DNA of 64,000 bases from Novakomyces olei. Lineage: Eukaryota. The notes under the pieces are model-generated. The model saw only the letters and a list, made by a program, of their open reading frames with translations. It did no database searches and had not been told where the DNA came from. The stretch spans positions 62,001 through 126,000 of the forward strand of contig JADEYG010000009.1 in NCBI GenBank assembly GCA_016906335.1, read 5' to 3'. Numbering within the stretch: position 1 is the first letter of the stretch; each line of letters begins with the position of its first letter. Below are positions 3,290-41,598 of this stretch, in pieces. The translations under genes and the position numbers were made by a program.

Positions 3290-5086
3290 CTATCGTGCAA
3301 CCTGCAAAGCTATCTCCTTCACTACCTCAAACGCATTTATATAATCTTTTTCTGTCTGTAAAGTGCCGCCGCCCACAACGCGAATAGCTTTTATTCCATT
3401 AACATGATCATGGCCCAAAACTGTCATGCTTAAAAATATCCTTCCATCCTGGTTTATCCGGTCGTGAACTTTTTGTGTAATCGCATTCTCCACCTCATGA
3501 TCTGTCCCACACTTTGTTTCATCGCTATGGCTTGCACCATTCTCATAGTTATGGACGCCGTTTTCCTCTTTCCTCTGTAAAGGCCGCACGGAAAAGCAAG
3601 TTAGCCCAAACCGTGGTGGTGCCTGTAGTGCAAACAAATCCGGTTCGGACTTTATCAGATCCAAAAACACTTGTGCAGCTTTTAATGAACGTCTAATATG
3701 AGCCTGCAGCCCTTGAAGCCCATACGATCGCATAACGAACCAGATTTTCAAAGATCGGAACCGCCGACCCAACGGCACTTGCCAGTCCCTATAGTCGGTA
3801 ACGCGACCCGAGTCGGATAGCTGATTCCGAAGGTAAGGCGGATTTATCGACAAAGCTTTTGTCAAATCTGATTTATGCTTCACAAACATACAACTGCAGT
3901 CGAAATTAGTAAGAAGCCATTTGTGCATATTAACGTCAAACGAGTCGGCCTGCTCTAATTGAGCCGCAAGCGGATGAAATTCGGGGCAGATTAAAGCAGC
4001 TCCCGCGTAAGCAGCGTCTACATGCAGCCAAGTACTGCGTAAATCGGATTTCTGCTCTCTTTCCTTTTTATTTTCCGTCTCAAAGTCAGATATCACACCC
4101 GCGATCCCCGCAATATCGTCAACGGCACAACTTCCCGTAGTACCAAACGTGGCCGTTACAAAAAAGGGGATCAACCCACGCGACTTGCACTTGATCATAG
4201 TCTCGTGGAAACTTTGCGCTGTAACTTGCCAAGTTCCAGGGCACGATTTTATATTGAGATAGCGAACGCCGAGTATTTGCGCAGCTTTTTGTGTACAAGA
4301 ATGAGCTTGATCTGAGCCAAGAGCAATGAGCTTAGACTGAATTTCTGCACGGTGGTCATCCACTGCATCAGAACCGGCAATATCGTCATTATAGCTGCCA
4401 TCAAGATCAGTACCGTCTTGATCATTAACGTCCTTGTTTTTGCGCATAAAACAATATTTGCGTAAACACCGTTCGCGGGCGGCAATCATAGCGACTAACA
4501 CGGCTTCCGAAGCGCTGCCCTGGATCACGCCGCCCCCACTGGAAGTGGAAAGGAAATGATTGGGTAAATGGCACGCTTTAGCGAGCCAATCGAGCACGAT
4601 CGTTTCGAGTTCCGTTACAGCGGGCGAGCAGATGTAGTTGAATGAGATGGCATTAAACATATCGGAATACATATCGCCCAAGATTCCGGGAAAGCTCGAG
4701 TTTGCTGGGAAAAAGGCAAAAAAATTCGGGGATTGCCAGTGAGTGATACCGGGCTGTAATTTATCAGTCAATGCTGATTTCTCCAAGGCAAAATGCAAAA
4801 TCAAAGTATGTAACGAAAGTAAAAAGCTCTTACGACAATATATTTTTCGATATCTGCTTGAATGTCGCCCCATTGCTCGCCGTTTTGCGGTATTTGTTCT
4901 GGCAGACGCTGCCTTAAATAACCCGGGGTTACTTCTGAAAGGCATTGCAGCGAGGATACTTGTTCTCGATATTGTATAACTTTTTAGAGTCAGCAAACGC
5001 AATTGCTATTTCTTGTCTGTAAATATGCCACTCATACTCCTGTCAACGGCCGCGTAACCTGCTTTGCGAAACTCTTCTGCGTCCAT
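3290..5086 (-). CDS. PLP-dependent aromatic L-amino acid decarboxylase (group II)
   Basis: MDAEEFRKAGYAAVD start at 5086 with two short introns. Motifs PGITHWQSPNFFAFFP, GGGVIQGSASEA, WLHVDAAYAGA, DSFDVNMHKWLLTNFDCS (PLP lysine) and DWQVPLGRRFRSLKIW. Confidence 0.93.
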
Positions 5087-15871: not shown

Positions 15872-17159
15872 TCAGTATGAAATACGATCCCAGTATTGCG
15901 TTTCTTCAGAGCCTTCAATCTGTGAAGAATGTGGAACGTTTTGAAGAATAATTGCACAATCCTCAGGCTGAGCTGTACGGATTATGGCAGTGGTATCGCC
16001 TTTAAAATAATCGACATAGGCAATATTTGGCAATTTACCACATAACTCTTCCAGCATATTTTGAATAGCAGTTTTATTGCTCAAAGGGTCAATATTTTCG
16101 ATCTGGACGAGTACACCGGGCTTAAATTCCAATTTTCGTTTTTTGCTAGTAGCAAAAGGCTGAATTTTAAGCTCGGGACTCTCCTTCCACTCTGCACCAG
16201 TCGTCACTTCAACGTCCATTTCAGTATTGGCTTCTGCCTTGAAACCATTTGTCCCCTTATTTTCTGTATGCATCAGGCGCTTTTCATAGTGTATATCCTC
16301 ACTCATGAGTTCGGCATATTCTCGTTCCCTCTCCTCCCATTCCTGACTTTATGGTCTCGTTAGCTTTTGTAGTATATAATAAACGGTCTTACATAGTGCA
16401 AACGAGCCATCCCGGTTCAGAGACAAGACTACCGCGTTTAGCAATTTCGGACATAACCACGAAAACATAGCCCAGTTTGGAGGTGGTGACTTTTTGTACG
16501 GCGCCGAGATCGACCAGTAATTTATCGGCAAGCGCTGTGCAAAGCTGGACCGGCTTTGAACACAGTGATAACGGAAACGGTTCCTGTCTGTTAAATGCCA
16601 TTCATCATTTTAGTTTTTTGAATTTCAATCTATTAATTTCAATATGATTTTCTCTCGTCATGAAATTTGTATTTTTTCTTGTTTGAAGGCACTTCGTACC
16701 ACGTAAATAGTCCTCGGACCCCAATTTGTTTCCGGCCCTTGCTCAATTACTCTCATATGGTGTTTGTCTGAAGAAAGCGCCAGTTTAACGTATCCTTTGC
16801 CTTTAGAAATCGTATGCTGATGCTCAATCGCGCCCTGAATAAGCGTTTGTGAGGCAAACCCTTCAATTTCTGACAGCAAATCGGAGCATTCTAGTAACAA
16901 GATCACCGCGACGGAAAGATGAACAACTGTAAAGTGTTAGTTTACATCATCACACTTGCAACTTGCAGTCATTATATCCATCTATATTGCGATAGTATTG
17001 TGAAATTTGGCGGTTCAATCCTGCATCAGTCTGGCGGCGGTGTGTGGAAAAAAGAAGCGTTAATGCGGCCAAAATGTATTTCTGTTTAACTGCAAGATCG
17101 GTCGCCTGTTTAGCCGCAAAACTCTGGAGCTCATCATCAGGCCGGCGACGATTGCTCAT
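15872..17159 (-). CDS. pof8: La-related protein LARP7/Pof8-like (telomerase RNP component), 4 exons
   Basis: Degenerate La motif (DGYNDFVHLS), RRM1 (RTIYVEPFP..GYVFVVM..QEWEERE), and a C-terminal xRRM: KPGVLVQIENIDPLSNKTAI..IAYVDYFKGDTTAIIR..GSEETQYWDRI. This closely resembles the Pof8/p65 xRRM. The first intron is GC-AG. Confidence 0.8.
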
Positions 17160-17531
17160 GCTAGTTTTGGCTTCATTTCATTCGTTTTATTTACGATTTA
17201 TCGTTAATTTAATAATTTTATTCTTCCGTACTCTGAATTTGATCGTATCTTTTAGAGGTTTTTGTAAGACTGCGCGTACAAAATTATTCTAGTTGTACCG
17301 CGATAATAACTATTTTTAAAGTAAGCCAACCAGCTAAATTACTTAATAATTTAATTTCGAACATTTCAATTACTGAATATCTCAATTACTGAATATTACT
17401 TGTATGTTGTTATAGACTAAACTCAAAACTCCCAAAAATCAAAGCTGCAAAGGCCACATACACAAGCAACGCAGTGTTGAGGACATTTTCAAGTGCGCTC
17501 CAACATTGTAAAAGGACCTTTGATCTCAAAG

Positions 17532-19992
17532 ATGTCTGCGACTCAGAACAACGAGGATCTTATTGATTATGAGGAGGAAGAGGAGGAGCTGACTACTGGC
17601 GGTGGCGCAGCAGGCGGACAGGCTCCCGCTTCCAACGGCGCAGCAGCAGGCGCCAAAGCTGCGACGGATAACGGTGATAAAGGACAGGCCGACAAAAAGG
17701 GTTCCTATGTGGGAATCCACTCGACAGGGTTTCGTGATTTTTTGTTGAAACCTGAGCTGCTCCGTGCCGTGACAGATTGTGGTTTTGAGCATCCTTCTGA
17801 GGGTCAGTACTTTATTTAGTTTTTCCTCCGATCAACACGGAACATCCCTTTTATCATTGTATTTGTTCATCAAAACCATCATCATCATCATCATTTTCGG
17901 CATTGTCGGTGGACTCGTCGCAAAATATTTGGGCTCTTTGTGCGCCCAAGTATAGAATCGATACAAGTATTGGCTTTTGTATATGGAATTTGTCATGTTC
18001 AGCATCAGAGACAATAGCTTCTGTCTAATGCTTGGCGTGTGCAGAGTCAGCTTCATTGAACGATTGGCATCAGAGCTGGGCTTTCTTTGTGGCCCACATG
18101 CTACATGAGAAACGCATGATCACCGTTTATTTTATATTTATATCCTCTAGATTAAGTCGTTCCTGGCTTGGAAAATGATTTATTAGAATGATCTTCTTTT
18201 TTCTAGTCGTCCTTTTTTCTAATGTGTTTTTGCGTCTTTGTTGCCCCAATGCAATATCGATGTACACATAATGGTCATTAGCTCTTTTTTTTTGTGGTCT
18301 TTGGACTCTAATTTTTATTGGGCTTTAATTTCGATTGTATTTTTTATTCGATTTGCGTTCATTTTATTTTCCTTCAGCATCGCACCCAATCTGTACTGGC
18401 TTTGAATATGGTGGATTGGCAATGTCGCAATACACTGTTTAAAGGTCAATTAATATTTAATGATCACGAATAAAGTAATGGAGGAAAAACACATATAGCA
18501 CGCCCAAAATTGCCGAAGATTCCGCCAAAGATGCCGAATAATGTCTTGATGATGTTTGGTTTTGTTGATGATTAAAAATTTACGATTTCTGAAATTAGCG
18601 CTGACATTTTCGATCAACAGTGCAACAAGTATGCATCCCTCAGGCCATTTTGGCCAGCGACGTTCTCTGCCAGGTAAGTGAGCTATTTCGGACGTTTTAC
18701 CTTTGTTTCGGATTGAAGTTAGACCAACCTTTACACTATTATTTTAAAAGCTCAACAAGTTTAATTTTGTCCTGGATTTCTTTTCTCTTTATTTTCTCTA
18801 GTTTTTCGTTTGAAATTTTACCTAACACTCCAGGCCAAATCTGGTATGGGCAAAACCGCTGTGTTCGTCCTTGCAACGTTGCAGCAGATCGAGCCGGTAG
18901 ACGGCGAAGTAAGTGTGCTCGTGCTCTGCCATACTCGTGAGCTCGCTTTTCAAATCAAAAACGAGTATGCCCGTTTTACAAAATACCTACCCGATGTGAG
19001 AACTGCAGTGTTTTACGGTGGTGTTCCTATCGCCAAAGATATTGAGCTGTTGAAAGACAAATCTAAGTCTCCACACATTGTCGTTGCAACTCCAGGCCGT
19101 CTAAACCAGCTTGTGCGTGAAAATCATTTGCGTGTGAATCATGTTAAGCATTTCGTACTCGATGAATGTGATCGTATGCTGGAAGCTTTGGATATGCGTC
19201 GCGACATTCAAGATATCTTCCGTGCTACACCTCCGAGCAAACAAGTAATGATGTTTAGCGCGACCCTGAGCCAGGAAATTCGTCCAATCTGCAAAAAATT
19301 TATGCAAAACGTAAGAAATATTCAATTTAAATTATATGCTTATTTATTTTTTTATATATACGTGAATCTAACTATCTTTTAGCCGCTTGAAATCTATGTG
19401 GACGATGAAGCGAAGTTGACTCTGCACGGTCTGCAGCAGCACTACGTGAAATTGGCGGAAAACGAAAAGAATCGGAAGCTGAACGATTTACTCGATGACT
19501 TGGAGTTTAACCAAGTTGTGATATTTGTAAAATCCGTGGGCCGTGCAATCGAGCTCGATAAACTACTGAAAGCCTGCAGTTTCCCTTCGATTAGTATTCA
19601 CGGTGGTTTACAACAAGAAGAGCGGTATGTTTTATGCTCTAAACCTCCTTTTTGATCCAAAAATATTTACTAGTTTGCTGATATCTAGAATCAACCGCTA
19701 TAAATCGTTCAAAGACTTTAATGCTCGTATTTGTGTGGCAACCGACGTGCTTGGCCGTGGTATCGACATTGAGCGTGTGAACATTGTCATCAATTACGAC
19801 ATGCCCGATACAGCAGATCAATACCTGCATCGTGTAGGACGCGCTGGTCGTTTTGGAACGAAAGGTCTCGCCATCTCTTTTGTGGCTAGTCCCGCAGATC
19901 AGGAGATTATGGACAAAATTCAGGAACGTTTCGAGGTGAACGTGACTGAAATGCCTGAGCATATTGACATTGGCTCGTACATGAACGCGTAA
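17532..19992 (+). CDS. SUB2: DECD-box RNA helicase Sub2/UAP56 (5 exons)
   Basis: [66 protein letters not shown] and [12 protein letters not shown]. First intron spans 17803-18620. Confidence 0.97.
17866..18571 (+). other. Long-range complementary arms inside SUB2 intron 1
   Basis: 17866-17943 (tcatcaaaacca..ttcggcat..ggtgga..tcg..ttgggc..gtgc) is the imperfect reverse complement of 18498-18571 (gcac gcccaa..cga..tccgcc..atgccgaa..tgatgatg..tggttttg..tgatga). It includes G:U pairs that form only on the sense strand. Confidence 0.8.
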
Positions 19993-20265
19993 ACATGTTT
20001 ATTCTGCTGAATAAAAAGGGGCCGATTCGTGTTGGGCAATGCAGGTAGTGTCAGATCAAACAGTTTTGCAATTGAATCACGTATTAAGCGCCAGTATTGA
20101 TCGATATTGGTATTATTTGCGTATAGTAATAAGTGTATTTAACTGTAATGTTAGAATATCAGTCGGAATACCAATTGACGCCGTTTAGGCTGTATTGAAA
20201 CGCTTACCCGGTTTTGCTATAGAAAAGATAGTTTGAAATATAGAAATGCACGCTCTACATCATAT

Positions 20266-20316
<51 letters not shown>
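20266..20316. repeat. (TATT)n microsatellite
   Basis: About 12-13 consecutive TATT/ATTT units. Confidence 0.95.
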
Positions 20317-21098
20317 TCCTATCTAATTATACAATAACGGGTAGGGATGCCACGTTGTCTCGTTGCGTTAGTAATGTTTCAGTTTCGGCAATAAAGAGTA
20401 TGCGATTTAATGCTCGGAGGATGAACAGCCTTCAAAGTAGTCTAGTCTAGAATGCGGGAAAAGAAAAACGGGAATTATATGGAGTTTGCAAGTAATGTAA
20501 GATGTTGCGCCGAACAAAGTATAGTACAATCTTGGACTAAACTGGTATAGGTGTCGGATAATTGGTGGAGGGGAGAGACTAATTTTCGCTTTTAAGTATG
20601 TCATCATGAACTGATTGATCAGAGATTGATCAGAGAAGCATCGAGGCTATGCACAGACAAGAAACTGCGGTCTGGCAAATCGGCAATAGTAACAATAATA
20701 CGAAGCATAATCTGCAATAGTATCTGTTGTAATAACAGTTGTATAACTGAAATTTTCGTCCAAAAATTGACGGCTGGCATTACTGCTTCAGCAATACTTG
20801 TCAAGACATACAAGCCGTCCCAAAAGGGATCAAGGGAACTTGTGAAGCCAAGGTTACTTATATATGTATTTCGAACGAGAGACAGGTAAAGCATTGTAAC
20901 GCATAAAGTAAGGCCAGTAGCAGATACATTACATTTCCATAGACAAAACTGTGGAAGAAATACATCAGAAATCAAGACAAATAAGAATATACAAGACTGG
21001 GACCCGTAAATACATGCATATTTAAAAATCTTGAGAGCAGCACTTTGAGATCTCGGCTGTCTACATGAGCTTATAAATTTGGCTCGCGAGCGCGTCTT

Positions 21099-24779: not shown

Positions 24780-26536
24780 TCAAATTAATTTTGTGCAATT
24801 ATCGCGAGATTTTACTTTGTAGCCACATGTGTCGTTGCTGGCCTGTTTGTGTGTTTGAGTCTCTTCTACTGGAAAGAGTATTCGTCTTGTCGATCTCAAC
24901 TATATTATGTCATGGGGCATTTGTTTTTGTTTGAAATTAGAATTTTTACGTCGTTTTATCGACTGCGGAGTATCATACTGTTGTCTTTTTGCCAGCTTCT
25001 TTTTTATTCTTTTTAAGTTTTGTGGAAAAGCTGTCTTTGATTAAGCAGATATTTGTATTTTGTTTTGAGGTAAATGTCTATTGTGAAAAGGTCAATATTT
25101 TAATTTGGGCGATGGTTATCGCGGCCTCTTTGGTGAAACAATTTTTCAATATTTCCAATGGTGGCTTGTTTTGTAAATTTAATGCGCTTTTCATCATCAC
25201 GGGCTTATGATCCGAAACCGACGGTCTGAAACCCGTAATTTGAACTTGTGGTGATTCCATGTTTTTTTATTTTATATGTCTACGGTTCATGTTTTTTTCA
25301 TACTTTATAGTTTTGTGAGCGGTTCGCTTATTGCGACTGCGTAGCTAGAGCCCAAACGACAAATTTTGTATATGATTGATTAGTTTTCGAGGTACATCTA
25401 ACGTTACTAAATTATAAACTCAGAGCTCCATTAATTCCTTACCGCATAGGCCCGGAAAAAACATGCTTTCAAGTGCCACTGCGTGCATTATTGCTTGACC
25501 ATTACAATATTTGATGAACTTTAAATCGGGTAATCGTGTGGATGCCATGTGGAGGAAACCACCAGAACGAATTTTTTTGAAAACGAGGCAATATTGGTAC
25601 AAAAATCTGCGCCAAAAGTCTTAAATTCTACCTGTCGCAATAATGTTAGTATAATGAAACGAGTTTTCTATTAGGTTTATGTATCGTAGTCCTCGGAGAT
25701 TCGGCAGTAGATCATTCGGTCCTAGATCGGCGACCATTGTCTCTATTAATAGCGCACGGCTAGAAAAAGCCAAAGACCTTAAAATAGAAAAATTTATGCA
25801 ACATTAATGGACTATTTAATTCCAATTGGTAGCGGCAGAGCTAAGCTAAATCTATGAAGCTCTGTTCACAATAGGGTACGCTTACTAAACCCTTATAACG
25901 AAAAATACGACAATAAGAAGGTATTATACGAATGAAATAATAATATTGTATAATTAGCCCACAAGATGATTATTGTTGTGATATTATACTGTGATATAAA
26001 TAGTAGTACGTCCCTAAGGTCTTTCAGCCTTACAATACACAGGCTTACTATTATTATACCTTCACAGCCCAAACCACTGGTAAAAAATCATCCACACAAA
26101 ATGAAAAATAAATACAGCCGCAGAGACAGCGTCAAGAGTGAAACAAATTGGACAGAGAAATAGTGCCTTATTCAAAAACTTGAGCATCTTTGGAGCGCAG
26201 ATATTGTATTTGTTCAAGGGCAGCGTACAGCAAACGATACACGTAATTAAAAGACTTAAACAAAGTGTATATAATATACATCATAGAGCGGTAATCAATC
26301 AATCAATTATTATTAATACTACTTGTAACTGAGTATTCAATCAAAACACAGCATTTGCAATAAGAATAGCAGGACATTTTATAATATGTCTACGAAATAT
26401 ACCGCTTTACGCATATAACTCGTAAGCCCCATACGCGAGGAAAACGAGCAGGGCCAACTGATCTCGTCAACGCGCATATATTGGGTGTCGAAGCTGCCGC
26501 GTTCTCGGCTTGGCACATTGTGCGTGTGTGTCCGAC

Positions 26537-29500
26537 ATGCAAGACGCTTCAGAGGGGCCAAAGCTGAGAATCTTGTGTGGTACGTTTTAATTTCCCCTCT
26601 TTTCCTTTTTCAATGTCTTGTTTGGATGCTTTTTGTCCACCTTTTCTTGCCTGAGAAAATCGGGTTTGGATTCCGCTATTGTTTGGATTCTGTATTTGCT
26701 CTATGCTCGTGGCACACGTTTATTTGGCGCGTACTTGAAGGTTCCGCTTTTGATTCCGACGGTGTGCCGCGAAATTTGGGCGTTTTCAGTGAATGATCTG
26801 TTTATAATGCTTTTCTCTATTTTTAAGAATTCGGTCCTGTTTACACGAATTGCTTTATTTTTCGATTTGAAATTGCTGTTGTCTGCATTGAGCAGGTAAA
26901 GCTTGGATTTGATTGGGTTCTGTGCGTCTGCCTGTTTAGACGGACCAGAATTTAGTGCGTCCGGTCAATTTTGAAAACAGTGTGGATAAAGGATTATACC
27001 TGGTTTCACTTTTATACGCGCTCCCATTCCGCAGAGAATTGGTTCAGTTTTCAGCTCAAAAGGCTATGGCCATATTTAGTCTTTAATCTGGTCTTTGTTT
27101 AAATTATGTTATTTGTTTGTTACCCCATAAATGCCTTTTTTTTTTCAGTTTTTTTTTCTTTAGTCAGTCGCCGCTGATCGTTTGGCATCAATTCTACAAT
27201 CTCCCATTTTCCAAAACTCGCCTTTTACAGATTTCGCACTTTATTTTGCATATGTATGATCATGAACAACACTAATGCCCTTCTAGTCGGCAGCTCTCCT
27301 TTGATCGCGTTTTTTGCTTGGCGCGTTCGGTCAAGCAATGCTTGTGAGTGTGATGTCGTATGGCCTTCGCATTACGATGCAATAGCGTCTTTTGGACTTT
27401 CAATAAAGTGAGGTTAGAGCTATTGTTCCACGTCTAACGTATATTAGGTCGTCGTCGTTGGGTGCAGAAAGATACAAGCCAGCGCAAAGTAAGACATTTT
27501 CATTTTTCATTTATTTTTATTCATTTGTCAAATAAATATAACAAGTAAATTTTTTCAAACGAATACTAATTTAAGTATTTCGGAATATACGAGAAGCGTG
27601 TAATGATTTACCGTACGATTATGTTGTTTGCCAGGCAAGCGCGGCAGACTGCATTGACGTTTCAAACATGATTGAATGCGCAGTTACGCCTTCGCATACG
27701 TGCATTGTAATAGAAACAGGAGACTCGTTGGATGCTGAATCGGAATTTTGTGCAAAGTTCCCAAGAAATTTAGTAGCAACCCTGGTTTGCGATGCAGATT
27801 TAATGCAAATTGGGCCTGCGGAGTTTGATCACATTGGCGAGGCTAAAGCGGTACTTGGCTGGATTTCTCCCAACGCGCATTTGCCATTGGAGGCTCAGCA
27901 GGACATGGTTGAGTCGCTGGCGCTTACACTTGAAGCGGGATCATTGCCATGTAGCATATCAGACAATATAATTAAGGAGAAATGGAGGCAATTAGTCGGC
28001 CCAATGGCTCTTTACCCGCTAACAGTCGTTATGAACGAGCCCAGTGTGGCCAAAATCGTATCTCGAGCAGCTGGCCGCGATCTTTTAACAGGAATCATTG
28101 AGGAGATTGTGTACTGTATCTCGGCAAGATTCAATGATGTGCAAGATGAAAAAATTAAATCAAGAAATGTCTATAACCGAATCACCGCTCGATCCTCTGC
28201 ATCAAATTCTGCAGAGGCCCAAAACCCATTGTACAAAGAATATGCATCCCGAAGGCCTCTGTCTCTCTCTGTTTATGTTCAACCTTTAGCTGAAATGATC
28301 TCGGACCTTGATCCGGATGTACCCCGTATCAAAACGGTCCATGCAATTCTGGAACAGTTGAATCAGAGCGATCGTCTGCCTTACATGTTGAACGGAGGCA
28401 ATTCGTCTTTTGACGGTTCTTCTGTGTCTTCATTCAGACAAGGGGCAACGGCAAGAAGAGGAGCTCCTCCTTATCCCTACAGCAACAACACTTCAAGCGA
28501 AATACTATCACGGCCTTCAATGTCGGCTCCGTCTTCCGCTGTCCTTGACCCTCAGCCACCCGAGTTGATTGGCGTCCCTGGTGCTGTTTCTCCCGATGCA
28601 ATTGATCCACGGGCCTTTATGAATGGACCAGACAGGTATGGTGGAGGTAGACAGCCGGGAACAGGTCCGGGACCTGTTCCGGGTCCCGGTAATGGTCTCG
28701 GTCCGGCCCCAGGCAATTATGGGGTTTCTCGGCCTCCAGTCCGTGCAATTCGATCGGTTTCGCAAATGAGTTTTGATCAGAATGGCGGTCAATTTCAGCA
28801 ACAAAGGATCCCCGGTCGGCCCCCTATTCCGATGGGCCTAGGTGTCAATCCTGGTCAAGCAAGGCGAGGCCAAATGCCTTTCCCTCCCGCACGTTCACCG
28901 GCAGGAATGGCCGGCCCGGGTCCCGGTTATTTTGACGAAGATGATGATGATGACGATTACGGAATGGCCGTTTACCAAAGAACCAAAGGCAGCGGTAATA
29001 AAGCCATGGGTCGTCGTCAGCCTCAGATTGATCCAGAGATGGTGGATATGATGAGCTTGACAAATAGGCGAACAAGAAAATCACAAAATATCCCCAACAA
29101 GGGCTACATGCGTTCAATGTTGAATGATGCAGAAGCAAGTGGACGTGTGCCCCCACAAATGATGAATGGGCCTCCTCCTCCTCGGGCAGGTGCTGCCTCC
29201 TATATGGGAATGCCTTCTCCCAGACTTCGGCAAGGAAGCCGAAACGGGCCCCCACCAATGAGCCCGGGCCCGGGATCGATTCCGGGCGAGCAACGAATTG
29301 TAGACAATCCCATGTTCTCCTCCACGGGAAGCCCGTACGCTATGGTGGACACGATGGAAGCGTCTAGAACAAATTCAATGACGACCCAGCGTGTTGATGA
29401 CCTCGGAATGTTACGTAGAGATTCGGCAATGGCCGGTGGAGGGATGCCTCGGTTAGGGTTGTCAAACAGTGGGGGTCCATACGGTGGGGGTCCATACGGT

Positions 29501-29908
29501 GGGGGTCCCTATGGTGGGGGTCCCTACGGTTCTGTCCCGTACGGTGGGGGGCCGTACGGTGGGGGCCGTGCGAACGGAGTCGGAGCCTCAACTAGCCGTC
29601 CGCAGCTTGTCTCGTCAAACTCTTCCGCAAGTTACTACAACTCCTCTACTCTTCGAGGCAATGGAAATGGCAATGATAATGGAAATTTTAGCGATTCGGC
29701 AGCAAATGGGGGAGGAAACGAAATCGATGAACCGTTAGCTCCGCCCCCACTTCCTCAGAAATCAGGTGGACAGCCTCCGGTACGGAGTGTTACGGGAAGT
29801 GCAAGTGCAAGCATACATTCCAATAGGGGAGGAGAGCATATGAGCTATGGAGAAGGAAGCAGTTCGAGCAGTTTAGAACGGAATAATTTGGGACATGATT
29901 ATACGTGA
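26537..29908 (+). CDS. Svl3/Pam1-like protein (degenerate ketopantoate reductase ApbA fold plus long Gly/Pro-rich tail)
   Basis: Reconstructed N-terminus MQDASEGPKLRILC|VGSSPLIAFFAWRV..NACECDVVW..FGLSIK|SSSLGAERYKP across a 707-nt intron (26580-27286) and two short introns. MIECAVTPSHTCIVIET, EKWRQLVGPMALYPLTV and DMMSLTNRRTRK match this fungal family. Confidence 0.75.
29470..29567 (+). repeat. Coding 15-bp repeat encoding (GGPYG)n
   Basis: ggggg(t/g)cc(a/c/g)ta(c/t)ggt-like units, about 6 copies, within the Svl3-like tail. Confidence 0.85.
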
Positions 29909-38388: not shown

Positions 38389-39793
38389 CTTGCTTTATAC
38401 AAATGTAAAGCGTGAAAAGAGGGCAATTTAAAGAAAACGTGTAAAGGTTGCTTTTGTGTCCGCCTAGAGAGTGATGGCAAAGACAGTTTCCCTGGCTGAA
38501 ATCGCGAGGACTTTTTGGTAGTGAAAGAGAGTTGATTGAATCTACGGCATGGAAACGTAAACCTTTTTATATCTTGGCCGTTGCGCGCTTGTGGGGCTCA
38601 TACGGTGCGTTTATGCCCGATGAAATTAGAGCGAGATCTCCTTATTTTCCTTTGCGCTTGCCTTCTTGTTTCTCCTGCGTTATTACTTGCCTCCCTTTTT
38701 GACATCCCTTCCCGATCAATCAGGGGAATTTTGCCAATTTTTAATTTTCACCGGTAAATTTATATTAATTTAATCTGATTATTGTCGCGTTTAACGCGCG
38801 TTTTGCTGACAATTAACGTTGCCGTTGCGGGTAAGCTTACTTGACAAGGATCGATCGTGGCAGTGCACCGTTGTGTGTGTGTCACCGCCCAGCCAATTAG
38901 GTGCCGAATTTAATTTGACAGGTGTGCCGGAAATTAAAAGGTTGCGGTAACGTTACTTTGTCTCGGGAATTGATCTAATTTACGACAACCGGCACTTGAA
39001 ATTAAGATCCATTTTCCCGAGTAATTTATTATTTTATGTAATCAAGCATTTCAGTCGCTTTAAAATAGCAGAAATAAATGGATAATGAAGCGAACACTTA
39101 ATAAAATTAATAGACTATAAAATAAGCATAACGCAGACATAGGGCCGCAACGATTGATGCCAAGATTTCCCCCGATAAATTTAGCACGAGCCCTAAGGGA
39201 CTATCTTCACTATTCAAAAGCGTTAACGCTCGATCGAATTGAGACAATCAGACTTGGCGGTTGAGAAAACCGCGCTTTTGTTGTTATCCCTGCATCGCTC
39301 TGCATCGCTGTTTAATTTAATTCAGAGTTTTAGGTCAAGGTAGTAAAATAGGATGAAGGATGAAAAGAAAATATTTCACTGTAATTGTTATTAAAATCTT
39401 GTGCAACGAAACTATGGGCGTATCATCAGTATTATACTAGCGATTTTCTCATTTTAAATTCAAATAAAATTTTTAATTTATAACTTGGAATATATAAAGA
39501 CTTGCAGCAGTATTGCCTGCTTGGCAGCAAGCGTACATACGCTTCCTATGTAATTTAAATTTAAAGTCTGCACACATAAATTTTATGGTCAAATTTATCT
39601 TACTTCCAAAGCAAATATTATTTCTACACAGCCTACGGAAATTACACAATTTTTTCTTTATATATAAAATGAAAATTATGTATATTCATCAAATGCCGAG
39701 ATCATCGGTCCATGAGGCTTGTAGAGGCGACGGCGTGTAAGGACCCTAAATTAGTAAAATATTTTCTATTCACCACTCTTTCAAGTATACAGT

Positions 39794-41598
39794 CTAGAAC
39801 CCAAAAATTGTTTCCAGTAAACCGCGGGCCAACCTGGACCTTAGCGAATTTGCTCCTGGAGCAACACTCTGAGTATTTGTATCTAAACGCGGCTTGGAAT
39901 CAGTAGCGCTGTCTCCTCCACTAAGCCATGAAAGCCAGCCATTCTGTGGGCTCGGCTTGAAAATATCATCACTCTCCAGTAACTGGACGCGTTTCGCTCC
40001 TCGTACACTCGATTGTGGGGTATTCGCAAAAGATTGAGGACCCTGAGATTTTGGCGTTTGAAAAGCCAAAGACGGAGTCGTTTGGCTCCGGTGCATTCCC
40101 AGCACTTTATTAGGCAATCTTCCAGCTTTTGCTGGCGGCGGCGGTGTGGTCGTCGCGTTGTCCACCTCCATTGCATCTGCATCGGGCCCCGTAAAATTAC
40201 TTGATCTTTTATCTGTAATGTTGCCCGCATTATTATTTGTTACATTTTCGTCAAGATTACTTGAAGCGATGTTTGAGTTTTGCCCAAGCGCGTCGGCAGC
40301 GTAAACGCACCCAATCATATATTTCCCGCCCAAGAGCATAGCATTCGCGTTTACTGCGCGCTCAGCACTGGCAGCATCTGTATAATTGATTTGTAACCAG
40401 TTGCCGCCCAGCGTAACATTGCCTGAATCTCCTGCAGCACTAGAATGAGTCCTTATCGGCCCATATCGACGAAAAACGTCGAGTACGTGCTGTGTCAAAT
40501 TAGAAGGAAATCCGAATATAATAACGCTTGTTCCGTCAGGTGCAATTTTTTGCTGCTGCTGTTGCTGTCTTTGTTGACCCTCCCGTATTTCTAACGACTG
40601 AGGCGACTTTAATTGTGAATGCGACTGGGTTGATGAGGGAGAGAACTGCCATTGTTTGGTCGTTTCAGGACTAGAAGGCTCTACCACAGAGTCTAGACCT
40701 CTTGGGGAATCGTAGATAGATGTAATTGGCGGAGCTTCCTCTTGAGCTCGGAGCATAGTGATTCCTGTCAAACCAGCTTGGCCGCCAGCGTGCCGCGAAA
40801 CGGGTTTGGGAGTACCAAAACTCGATCCGCCATACGTTCCCGGTGGCGACGACGAAGTCCGCCGTGAAAGGGGTCTGAAGATTAGATATGCGAGTGAGGA
40901 GCAAGAAAAGATATTTAGATTGCGGTAACGTTTATTTAATCCAAAATCATGCACTGGAAAACAGATATCGAACCCACACAAAAGTGTAGAATTAAAGATT
41001 TTCATTAAGTTTTATAGTATTAAATAATATAAACGAGCAGAGGAAAGCCTAGTGGCAAAGGAACAGAAAGAAGCAGAATAAGCCAGCAAAAAAAAAAGAG
41101 AAAAGATATTTATTTGGAACAAAAACTTACGGAGATCCACGGCTGTACGACCGTTCAGCAGCTAATGGTGAGCTGCGTTCAGGTAGGAATTGCTGATTGC
41201 ATTAGTCAACTTTGCACAAAATACCGAAAAAAAAGACTATAAAATAGCAAGCGTACCTTTTGCTGTGAGGAGTTGAACCGTGACAGATGGCTTGGCACGT
41301 AACGTCTATCACTTGACCCTCCCAGACTAGCGCTAAACCCTTGCCGGCCGGGCTTCGGCCCGCGGCGTAAAGGGCTTGCATTAGAGTACCCCGGGCTGCC
41401 AATTGAACTCGGCCCCAGATTCTCGCCTCGAGCACCGGTAAACTGGTTCAGCGAAGGAGAGCTGACGGAATAAGTCATTTGCTGTGGGGACTGTTGTTGA
41501 GAGGGGAATTGCTGCTGATTAAAAGACGAAGCATTTCCCGACGCAAAACCCGGCGATCCCTGCTGAGTTAAGGAAGGCGAGTTTAGCTGCGCCTGCAT
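39794..41598 (-). CDS. NUP53: Nucleoporin Nup53/Nup35 (Nup40-like), 3 exons
   Basis: PPITSIYD motif, Nup35-type RRM SVIIFGFP..FRRYGPI..GGNWLQINY..AERAV..NAMLLGGKYMIGCVY, and C-terminal amphipathic helix LLETIFGF. Confidence 0.85.

Follow-up and report, generated by a model that had tools for sequence, protein, structure and literature searches.

The first intron of a SUB2 gene carries a real, statistically solid long-range inverted repeat that can form structure, and the helix between its two arms is predicted to dominate the fold of this intron in the pre-mRNA. The gene encodes a DEAD-box helicase of the Sub2/UAP56 type and lies on the + strand at 17532-19992 of the window, the whole 64-kb stretch of DNA that was analysed. 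Its five exons splice to an open frame of 448 aa, and its four introns measure 818, 160, 72 and 64 nt from first to last. The layout of the gene and the parts of intron 1 are as follows.

17532..17802, + strand: exon 1, from the ATG at 17532 to HPSE and the first base of Val91; matching exons occur in metagenome loci (tblastn)
17803..18620, + strand: intron 1, 818 nt, phase 1, GTCAGT...CAG
17803..17808, + strand: 5' splice site GTCAGT, whose +3 base is a pyrimidine; predicted partner 18600-18605
17856..17865, + strand: outward extension of the helix, with 18573-18586; 10 predicted pairs, p 0.61-0.79
17866..17943, + strand: left arm of the inverted repeat, including (CAT)6 at 17877-17894
17944..18497, + strand: looped-out interior, 554 nt, with no family match, convincing ORF or structure excess
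18498..18571, + strand: right arm of the inverted repeat, pairing with the left arm
18601..18605, + strand: likely branch-point motif CTGAC, read from the sequence, with its A at 18604, 16 nt upstream of the 3' splice site
18621..18673, + strand: exon 2, 53 nt; spliced frame open
18834..19310, + strand: exon 3; spliced frame open
19383..19624, + strand: exon 4; spliced frame open
19689..19992, + strand: exon 5; spliced frame open

The 159 aa of exon 3 share 87% identity with Schizosaccharomyces japonicus Uap56 and 86% with S. pombe uap56; a Pneumocystis protein follows at 85% and one from Neolecta at 84%. The named Uap56/Sub2 proteins that it matches contain PF00270 and PF00271, and no identical protein was among the matches listed when this exon was used in a protein search. 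The assignment to SUB2, first made in a sequence-only reading of this DNA, is borne out by the S. japonicus match. Because exon 3 best resembles proteins of S. japonicus, S. pombe, Pneumocystis and Neolecta, the host fungus looks like a member of the Taphrinomycotina type, with fission yeasts, Pneumocystis and Neolecta as its closest named relatives. If intron 1 were left unspliced, the reading frame would run into a TAG stop at 17817-17819, five codons in, which is where ORF 17493..17819 ends. Branch points follow a CTRAY consensus; introns 2-4 of the gene contain CTAAC or CTGAT at distances like that of the CTGAC motif in intron 1.

The arms of the repeat are each about 75 nt long and about 77% alike, with five gaps in their alignment, and they lie 554 nt apart. 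RNAduplex joins them through 57 pairs, 55 Watson-Crick and two U:G, at -69.6 kcal/mol, and the resulting helix has many internal loops and bulges. The sequence-only reading had picked out these arms by eye, and all four of the complementary segments that it quoted pair as claimed; its estimate of about 550 nt looped out and about 110 nt left outside became, in silico, 554 nt and 112 nt (63 + 49 nt). It had also proposed folding the intron, and the predicted stem was recovered in the MFE and centroid structures alike, with a mean predicted pair probability of 0.88 across 56 core pairs. The whole-intron MFE is -217.5 kcal/mol, with a z of -4.27 against 20 shuffles and -4.28 against 40, and when the right arm is barred from pairing the fold loses 45.9 kcal/mol. 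In the predicted fold the 5' splice site pairs with the branch motif (p 0.97-1.00), within an outer duplex that is not above chance (z -1.56, 35/500 shuffles). A search of Rfam with 17000-20500, on both strands and at E<=1, gave no matches. Within the interior (17944-18497), the ORFs that lie wholly inside are all of 55 aa or less and none is convincing, and there is no excess of structure (MFE z -1.21).

The pairing of the arms far exceeds that of shuffled sequence. Dinucleotide-shuffled arm pairs average -33.9 kcal/mol with an sd of 4.7, and 0/500 reach -69.6. Aligning the 5' half of the intron with the reverse complement of its 3' half gives a score of 31, compared with 13.9 +/- 1.9 for shuffled introns, of which 0/1000 score as high. 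This half-against-half statistic was used in place of an alignment of the whole intron with its own reverse complement; in that alignment, with G:U rewarded, self-overlapping alignments dominate and 125 of 1000 shuffles reach the observed score. When the window is cut into 1264 sliding segments of 818 nt, intron 1 comes first with +2/-3 scoring (46, with the next locus at 32), second with +1/-1 and third with +5/-4, and the segments that outrank it are long, loose alignments. Intron 1 holds the strongest compact inverted repeat of the 64-kb window.

The sequence-only reading had taken the G:U pairs between the arms as favouring an RNA structure over a DNA element, and this was not sustained. 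Only 2/57 pairs of the core helix are G:U, and the antisense arms pair at -65.8 kcal/mol (z -6.9, with 0/500 shuffles as good). The argument fails because the arms are strand-symmetric, as expected of a repeat of DNA origin. Over the whole intron, the sense strand has a z of -4.3, compared with -0.76 (20 shuffles) or -1.13 (40 shuffles) for the antisense strand. The repeat is thus most readily understood as an inverted repeat of the DNA that enters the pre-mRNA on transcription.

Metagenomes were scanned with exon 3, and the comparison covers the best 80 of 248 matching loci, with a top identity of 78-81% in this very conserved exon. Splice junctions in these loci were located by tblastn and a junction search, that is, from the DNA sequence alone. 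An intron at the identical position (phase 1, after HPSE) occurs in L005, L017-19, L023, L053, L054 and L076; the shortest of these are about 111 nt (L005), 74 nt (L054) and 58 nt (L023). The 3' end of an intron at this position is also visible in L007, L022 and L029, whose contigs do not include exon 1. In another group, comprising L001, L002, L003, L004, L006 and L077 (the same as L080), a phase-1 intron lies 21 nt upstream; in L006 it is about 161 nt long. Judged from these junctions, the position of intron 1 appears to be old and common to distant fungi, and because it is shared with distant loci the intron would predate the repeat. The long first introns in which a stem was sought are given below with their lengths, MFE z and the number of shuffles reaching their inverted-repeat score.

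L017, same position as intron 1, 451 nt: z -0.28; 24 of 500 shuffles
L018, same position, 449 nt: z 0.73; 199 of 500
L053, same position, 559 nt: z -0.56; 23 of 500
L076, same position, 392 nt: z 0.95; 56 of 500
L001, upstream position, 306 nt: z 2.08; 161 of 500
L002, upstream position, 142 nt: z -0.64; 500 of 500
L003, upstream position, 181 nt: z 0.52; 458 of 500
L004, upstream position, 406 nt: z -0.93; 16 of 500
L077 (= L080), upstream position, 266 nt: z 0.30; 5 of 500

None of these nine introns of distant relatives contains a comparable stem. Their inverted-repeat scores range from 4 to 16, compared with 31 in SUB2 intron 1, and the nominally low shuffle counts in L077, L004, L053 and L017 belong to scores of 11-16 without an MFE excess. 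Conservation of the stem in orthologous introns, which the sequence-only reading had named as a check, was thus not seen (0/9), in relatives whose distance precludes a fair test of covariation.

Within the window, introns were called heuristically from ORF-pair junctions. None of nine other candidates (160-814 nt) has a closing stem, and their MFE z values run from -1.11 to +1.97; one of them has a nominal repeat signal (8/300 shuffles) with no MFE excess. A regex-based histogram of intron lengths had no peak above the shuffled control. The description of intron 1 as far longer than most introns here holds against the other introns of the gene (160, 72 and 64 nt) and against eight heuristic introns of 70-355 nt, but not against an 814-nt candidate at 26762-27575.

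We also considered whether the arms are the termini of a multi-copy MITE, the outcome that the sequence-only reading had said would speak against it. The results point the other way, as neither the window nor 17.8 Mb of contigs (at a likeness of at least 80%) contains another copy and no target-site duplication was found. BLAST of the intron against the 64-kb window returned the (CAT)n microsatellite and short chance matches, all non-significant and at most 35 nt long. The contigs (131,496, 17.8 Mb, probably the source assembly) gave no second copy of the repeat at a likeness of at least 80%, a threshold below which more diverged copies may fall. The four records returned were the source itself and three with pieces of 18-38 nt at low-complexity spots. 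A second contig set carries the same stretch with 0 differences, i.e. no polymorphism. For target-site duplications, there were 0 boundary pairs with at least 7/8 terminal complementarity plus a direct repeat of at least 2 bp. Like a MITE or foldback DNA transposon, the SUB2 repeat has long terminal inverted repeats, a non-coding interior and an overall size of about 700 bp; unlike one, it lacks a target-site duplication and any other copy (in the window, and in 17.8 Mb at a likeness of at least 80%). It may be an old insertion that is now unique.

Inverted repeats are also found in the symmetrical introns, stwintrons and introner-like elements of filamentous fungi, where they are 45-55 nt long with about 73% identity in the portion of the source considered here (PMC8469720). 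In that portion, the likeness to SUB2 intron 1 lies in imperfect, hairpin-forming inverted repeats and in the absence of flanking target-site duplications. However, these elements form multi-copy sister families, have their repeats at the very ends of the intron and sit at new gene positions, whereas the SUB2 repeat is single-copy, has its arms 63 and 49 nt inside the intron and occupies a position that appears to be ancient. An introner-like element fits poorly here, since no related copies were found (in the window, and in 17.8 Mb at a likeness of at least 80%) and the phase-1 position after HPSE is shared with L005, L017-19, L023, L053, L054 and L076.

With about even confidence, we explain the stem as a lineage-specific, single-copy repeat that an old intron gained by inverted duplication or foldback insertion; its RNA helix would be either zipper-like or merely tolerated. 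Its origin would lie at the DNA level, as an inverted duplication or as a foldback-type element that inserted into an ancestral intron some 110 nt long. Such an event is suggested because the parts outside the arms have a normal intron size (their 112 nt fall within the 64-160 nt of the gene's other introns), because the position is apparently ancient, and because the repeat is symmetric and unique. In the transcript, the arms would close into a helix of some 57 bp that brings the intron ends together, and the oversized intron would then be spliced as if it were of ordinary size. The helix may have been selected for this shortening role, or it may just be the reason the insertion was tolerated. 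Several points weigh against this explanation, among them the linker lengths and the spacing to the branch motif given below. An insertion origin is weakened by the lack of a target-site duplication or second copy. The pairing of the splice site with the branch motif in the predicted fold would hinder, not help, splicing. Transcription reaches the right arm about 600 nt later than the left, which may give local folds a chance to compete with the helix.

The RP51B intron work of Goguel and Rosbash reportedly concerns the same principle as the zipper stems to which the SUB2 helix can be compared. Zipper stems are found in long S. cerevisiae introns of the RPS17B type, and in the sections of the source considered here they are poorly conserved in sequence and patchy across orthologous introns (Rangan et al. 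2025, PMC12350175). The same sections give criteria of a minimum of 6 bp, linkers that total 42-85 nt and at least 20 nt to the branch point (PMC12350175). Measured against this partial account, the SUB2 helix likewise pairs a stretch that follows the 5' splice site with one that precedes the branch point, and it is predicted to reduce the effective distance across an intron of unusual length. It differs in being far longer, with a 57-bp core, in its loop of 554 nt, and in its host, which is neither a ribosomal-protein gene nor from the Saccharomycotina. Its placement is that of a zipper stem, with 17867-17943 paired to 18498-18571 and the branch motif at 18601-18605. The core stem leaves 63 nt and 29 nt on its two sides; once the predicted 10-bp extension is counted, 14 nt separate the helix from the motif. 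The linkers of the core stem add up to 92 nt, or 86 nt if the splice-site hexamer is left out, narrowly outside 42-85 nt, a threshold that was modelled on the S. cerevisiae spliceosome. We infer that the SUB2 helix would work like a zipper stem, though it is not a strict member of the class. No description of a SUB2/uap56 intron stem in fungi was found in the literature, supplementary files aside. Some literature matches to the name SUB2 concern the Plasmodium protease SUB2.

It is also possible, though we think it rather doubtful, that the repeat is a neutral relic. It would then be leftover DNA of an old foldback or MITE-like insertion, or of a replication template switch, with no effect on splicing or expression. 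The strand symmetry of the arms, their identity of just about 77% with five gaps, the lack of a stem in any relative examined (nine introns) and an interior without a detectable feature are all consistent with this. The transition mismatches between the arms point the same way: on the sense strand two of them become U:G and one becomes C.A, a split with no sign of RNA-directed selection. However, a helix of -70 kcal/mol with a mean pair probability of 0.88 is hardly inconsequential for an 818-nt intron, and it is still almost continuous despite a divergence of about 23%. The failure to find a target-site duplication or other copies counts against an inert insertion as well as against the duplication or foldback insertion that we prefer.

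The sequence-only reading had instead proposed a structure-gated intron that senses Sub2 activity, which we consider improbable. In such a scheme, the rod, including the GUCAGU:GCUGAC pairing, must open for splicing to proceed, and the supply of Sub2 would set how often this happens and so provide feedback. In the predicted fold, the 5' splice site with its +3 pyrimidine does pair with the branch motif, at the high probability given above. Among lineages with this intron position, 4/7 have a +3 pyrimidine (the window, L017-19, L053 and L054), compared with 0/12 of the introns further downstream in these genes. In L017/18 and L053 the splice site is again complementary to the branch motif over five pairs, and the lineages differ from one another in both partners (C:G, U:G, U:A). 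First introns are mostly long, at 111-559 nt compared with 38-79 nt downstream (the exceptions being L023 at 58 nt and L054 at 74 nt), and retention of intron 1 would bring a stop after five codons.

Autoregulation of this kind has precedents in YRA1 of yeast, said to have a self-regulated intron in the gene of an mRNA export factor, and in a human relative of SUB2. Human DDX39B intron 6 requires DDX39B for its own splicing, in the part of the account considered here (PMC11317157). With YRA1 and with intron 6 of DDX39B/DDX39A, as far as that part goes, SUB2 shares a host gene of the same pathway or family and a long intron with a non-consensus splice signal and frame-ending retention (PMC11317157). 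The human DDX39B/DDX39A case differs in involving another intron and C-rich polypyrimidine tracts, and in the same part of the account it involves no long-range stem (PMC11317157). Several findings argue against such a role for the SUB2 stem. Nothing ties Sub2 to the 57-bp helix, the long stem is present in 0/9 long first introns of distant relatives, and the outer duplex that contains the splice-site pairing is within chance (z -1.56, 35/500). DEAD-box proteins of the Sub2 class unwind short duplexes locally, and are not known to open helices of about 57 bp. The lineages compared are in addition few and not independent, with splice junctions inferred from DNA.

A related scheme, to which we give if anything slightly less credence, treats the end-to-end rod of the intron as a gate on splicing. 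Here the 57-bp stem would clamp the GUCAGU:GCUGAC pairing, and opening would depend on a helicase, possibly Sub2 itself, giving a DDX39B-like feedback. The conserved core of this gate would be the +3 pyrimidine with the two-sided complementarity, and the stem would be a lineage-specific reinforcement. The hints of regulation are circumstantial and concern intron 1 as a whole, and not the stem as a sensor.

We think it very unlikely that the hairpin is a source of small RNAs, with the helix of the excised intron cut by Dicer into siRNA-like RNAs. The helix is long (57 bp) and stable, and fission yeasts, which have RNAi, are among the closest named relatives; against this, it is interrupted by many internal loops and bulges, the window holds no second genomic target, and there is no Rfam match. 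Chance complementarity within an AT-rich, microsatellite-bearing intron is hardly credible and was rejected because no shuffle reaches the observed pairing (0/1000, 0/500) and the repeat is the top compact one in 64 kb, even though (CAT)n opposite GATGATG makes up part of the pairing and a loose RNAduplex scan of the window (702 blocks) averages -49 (sd 10.6) with 10 blocks at -74 or below, a high background inflated by the very large loops that it permitted and so not comparable with the arm helix.

If the helix acts as predicted, structural shortening of oversized introns would reach beyond the Saccharomycotina, to a fission-yeast-related lineage, and would occur in a non-ribosomal gene as well. 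On the same condition, SUB2 intron 1 would be a clean natural example of an inverted-repeat insertion neutralised through its own folding. The long, weak-signal first introns of SUB2 across fungi, a pattern drawn from 13 metagenome lineages and one that includes donors with a +3 pyrimidine or of the GTAC type, are a better lead than the stem itself. The product of SUB2 is an essential export helicase, and first introns that are several-fold longer than their neighbours and have non-consensus signals would make regulated, possibly self-regulated, splicing of this gene testable in fungi.

Among distant fungal SUB2 loci recovered from a metagenome scan (junctions inferred from sequence), the first intron spans 111-559 nt, versus 38-79 nt for the downstream introns of the same loci (L001-L006, L017-L019, L053, L076 and L077). 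Short first introns were found as exceptions in L023 (58 nt) and L054 (74 nt). In SUB2 intron 1 of the window the 5' splice site (17803-17808) is predicted to pair with the branch motif (18600-18605), and a five-pair complementarity of this kind recurs at the intron ends of L017, L018 and L053, where the variable pair differs by lineage (C:G, U:G or U:A).

Another candidate long intron lies at window 26762-27575 (approximately 814 nt; GTGTGC ... CTAAT ... AAG by a heuristic junction call) and would link the ORFs at 26419-26796 and 27575-29908. A closing stem is absent from this candidate, with its inverted repeat matched by 38 of 300 shuffles and a minimum free energy z of 0.92. The two ORFs may instead be distinct genes rather than one spliced gene. 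Elsewhere in the window, 39306-39479 and 39639-39826 form a loose, long inverted alignment of about 190 columns at low identity. It scores 36 under +1/-1, outscoring the inverted repeat of SUB2 intron 1 (17866-17943/18498-18571) under that scheme only and not under +2/-3. An (ATTT)n microsatellite is also present at ~20264-20317, about 270 nt 3' of the SUB2 stop codon.

X2, a sequencing run from a second study, also carries window 17400-19925, at approximately 3-6x word depth and with no differences across its seven contig pieces. That run thus contains this organism too, in low abundance. This stretch was absent from X3 and X4, two sibling runs.

In a second group of fungal loci, the SUB2 first intron sits 21 nt upstream of the position it has in the window, in phase 1 within Gly84. 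Counting L077 and L080 as one locus gives six distinct loci.

First introns of the second group
L001: 115-420
L002: 318-459
L003: 677-857
L004: 1469-1874
L006: ~3765-3925
L077: 3661-3926, equal to L080: 1269-1534

Donors are GTAC-type in five of the six (GTATGT in L004), and all six use the acceptor AAG. Five of the introns were measured for composition and are C-rich, at 31-39% C. The heptamer GCGGCGA occurs inside 5/6, with GAGGCGA in L006. The heptamer may represent a conserved intronic element.
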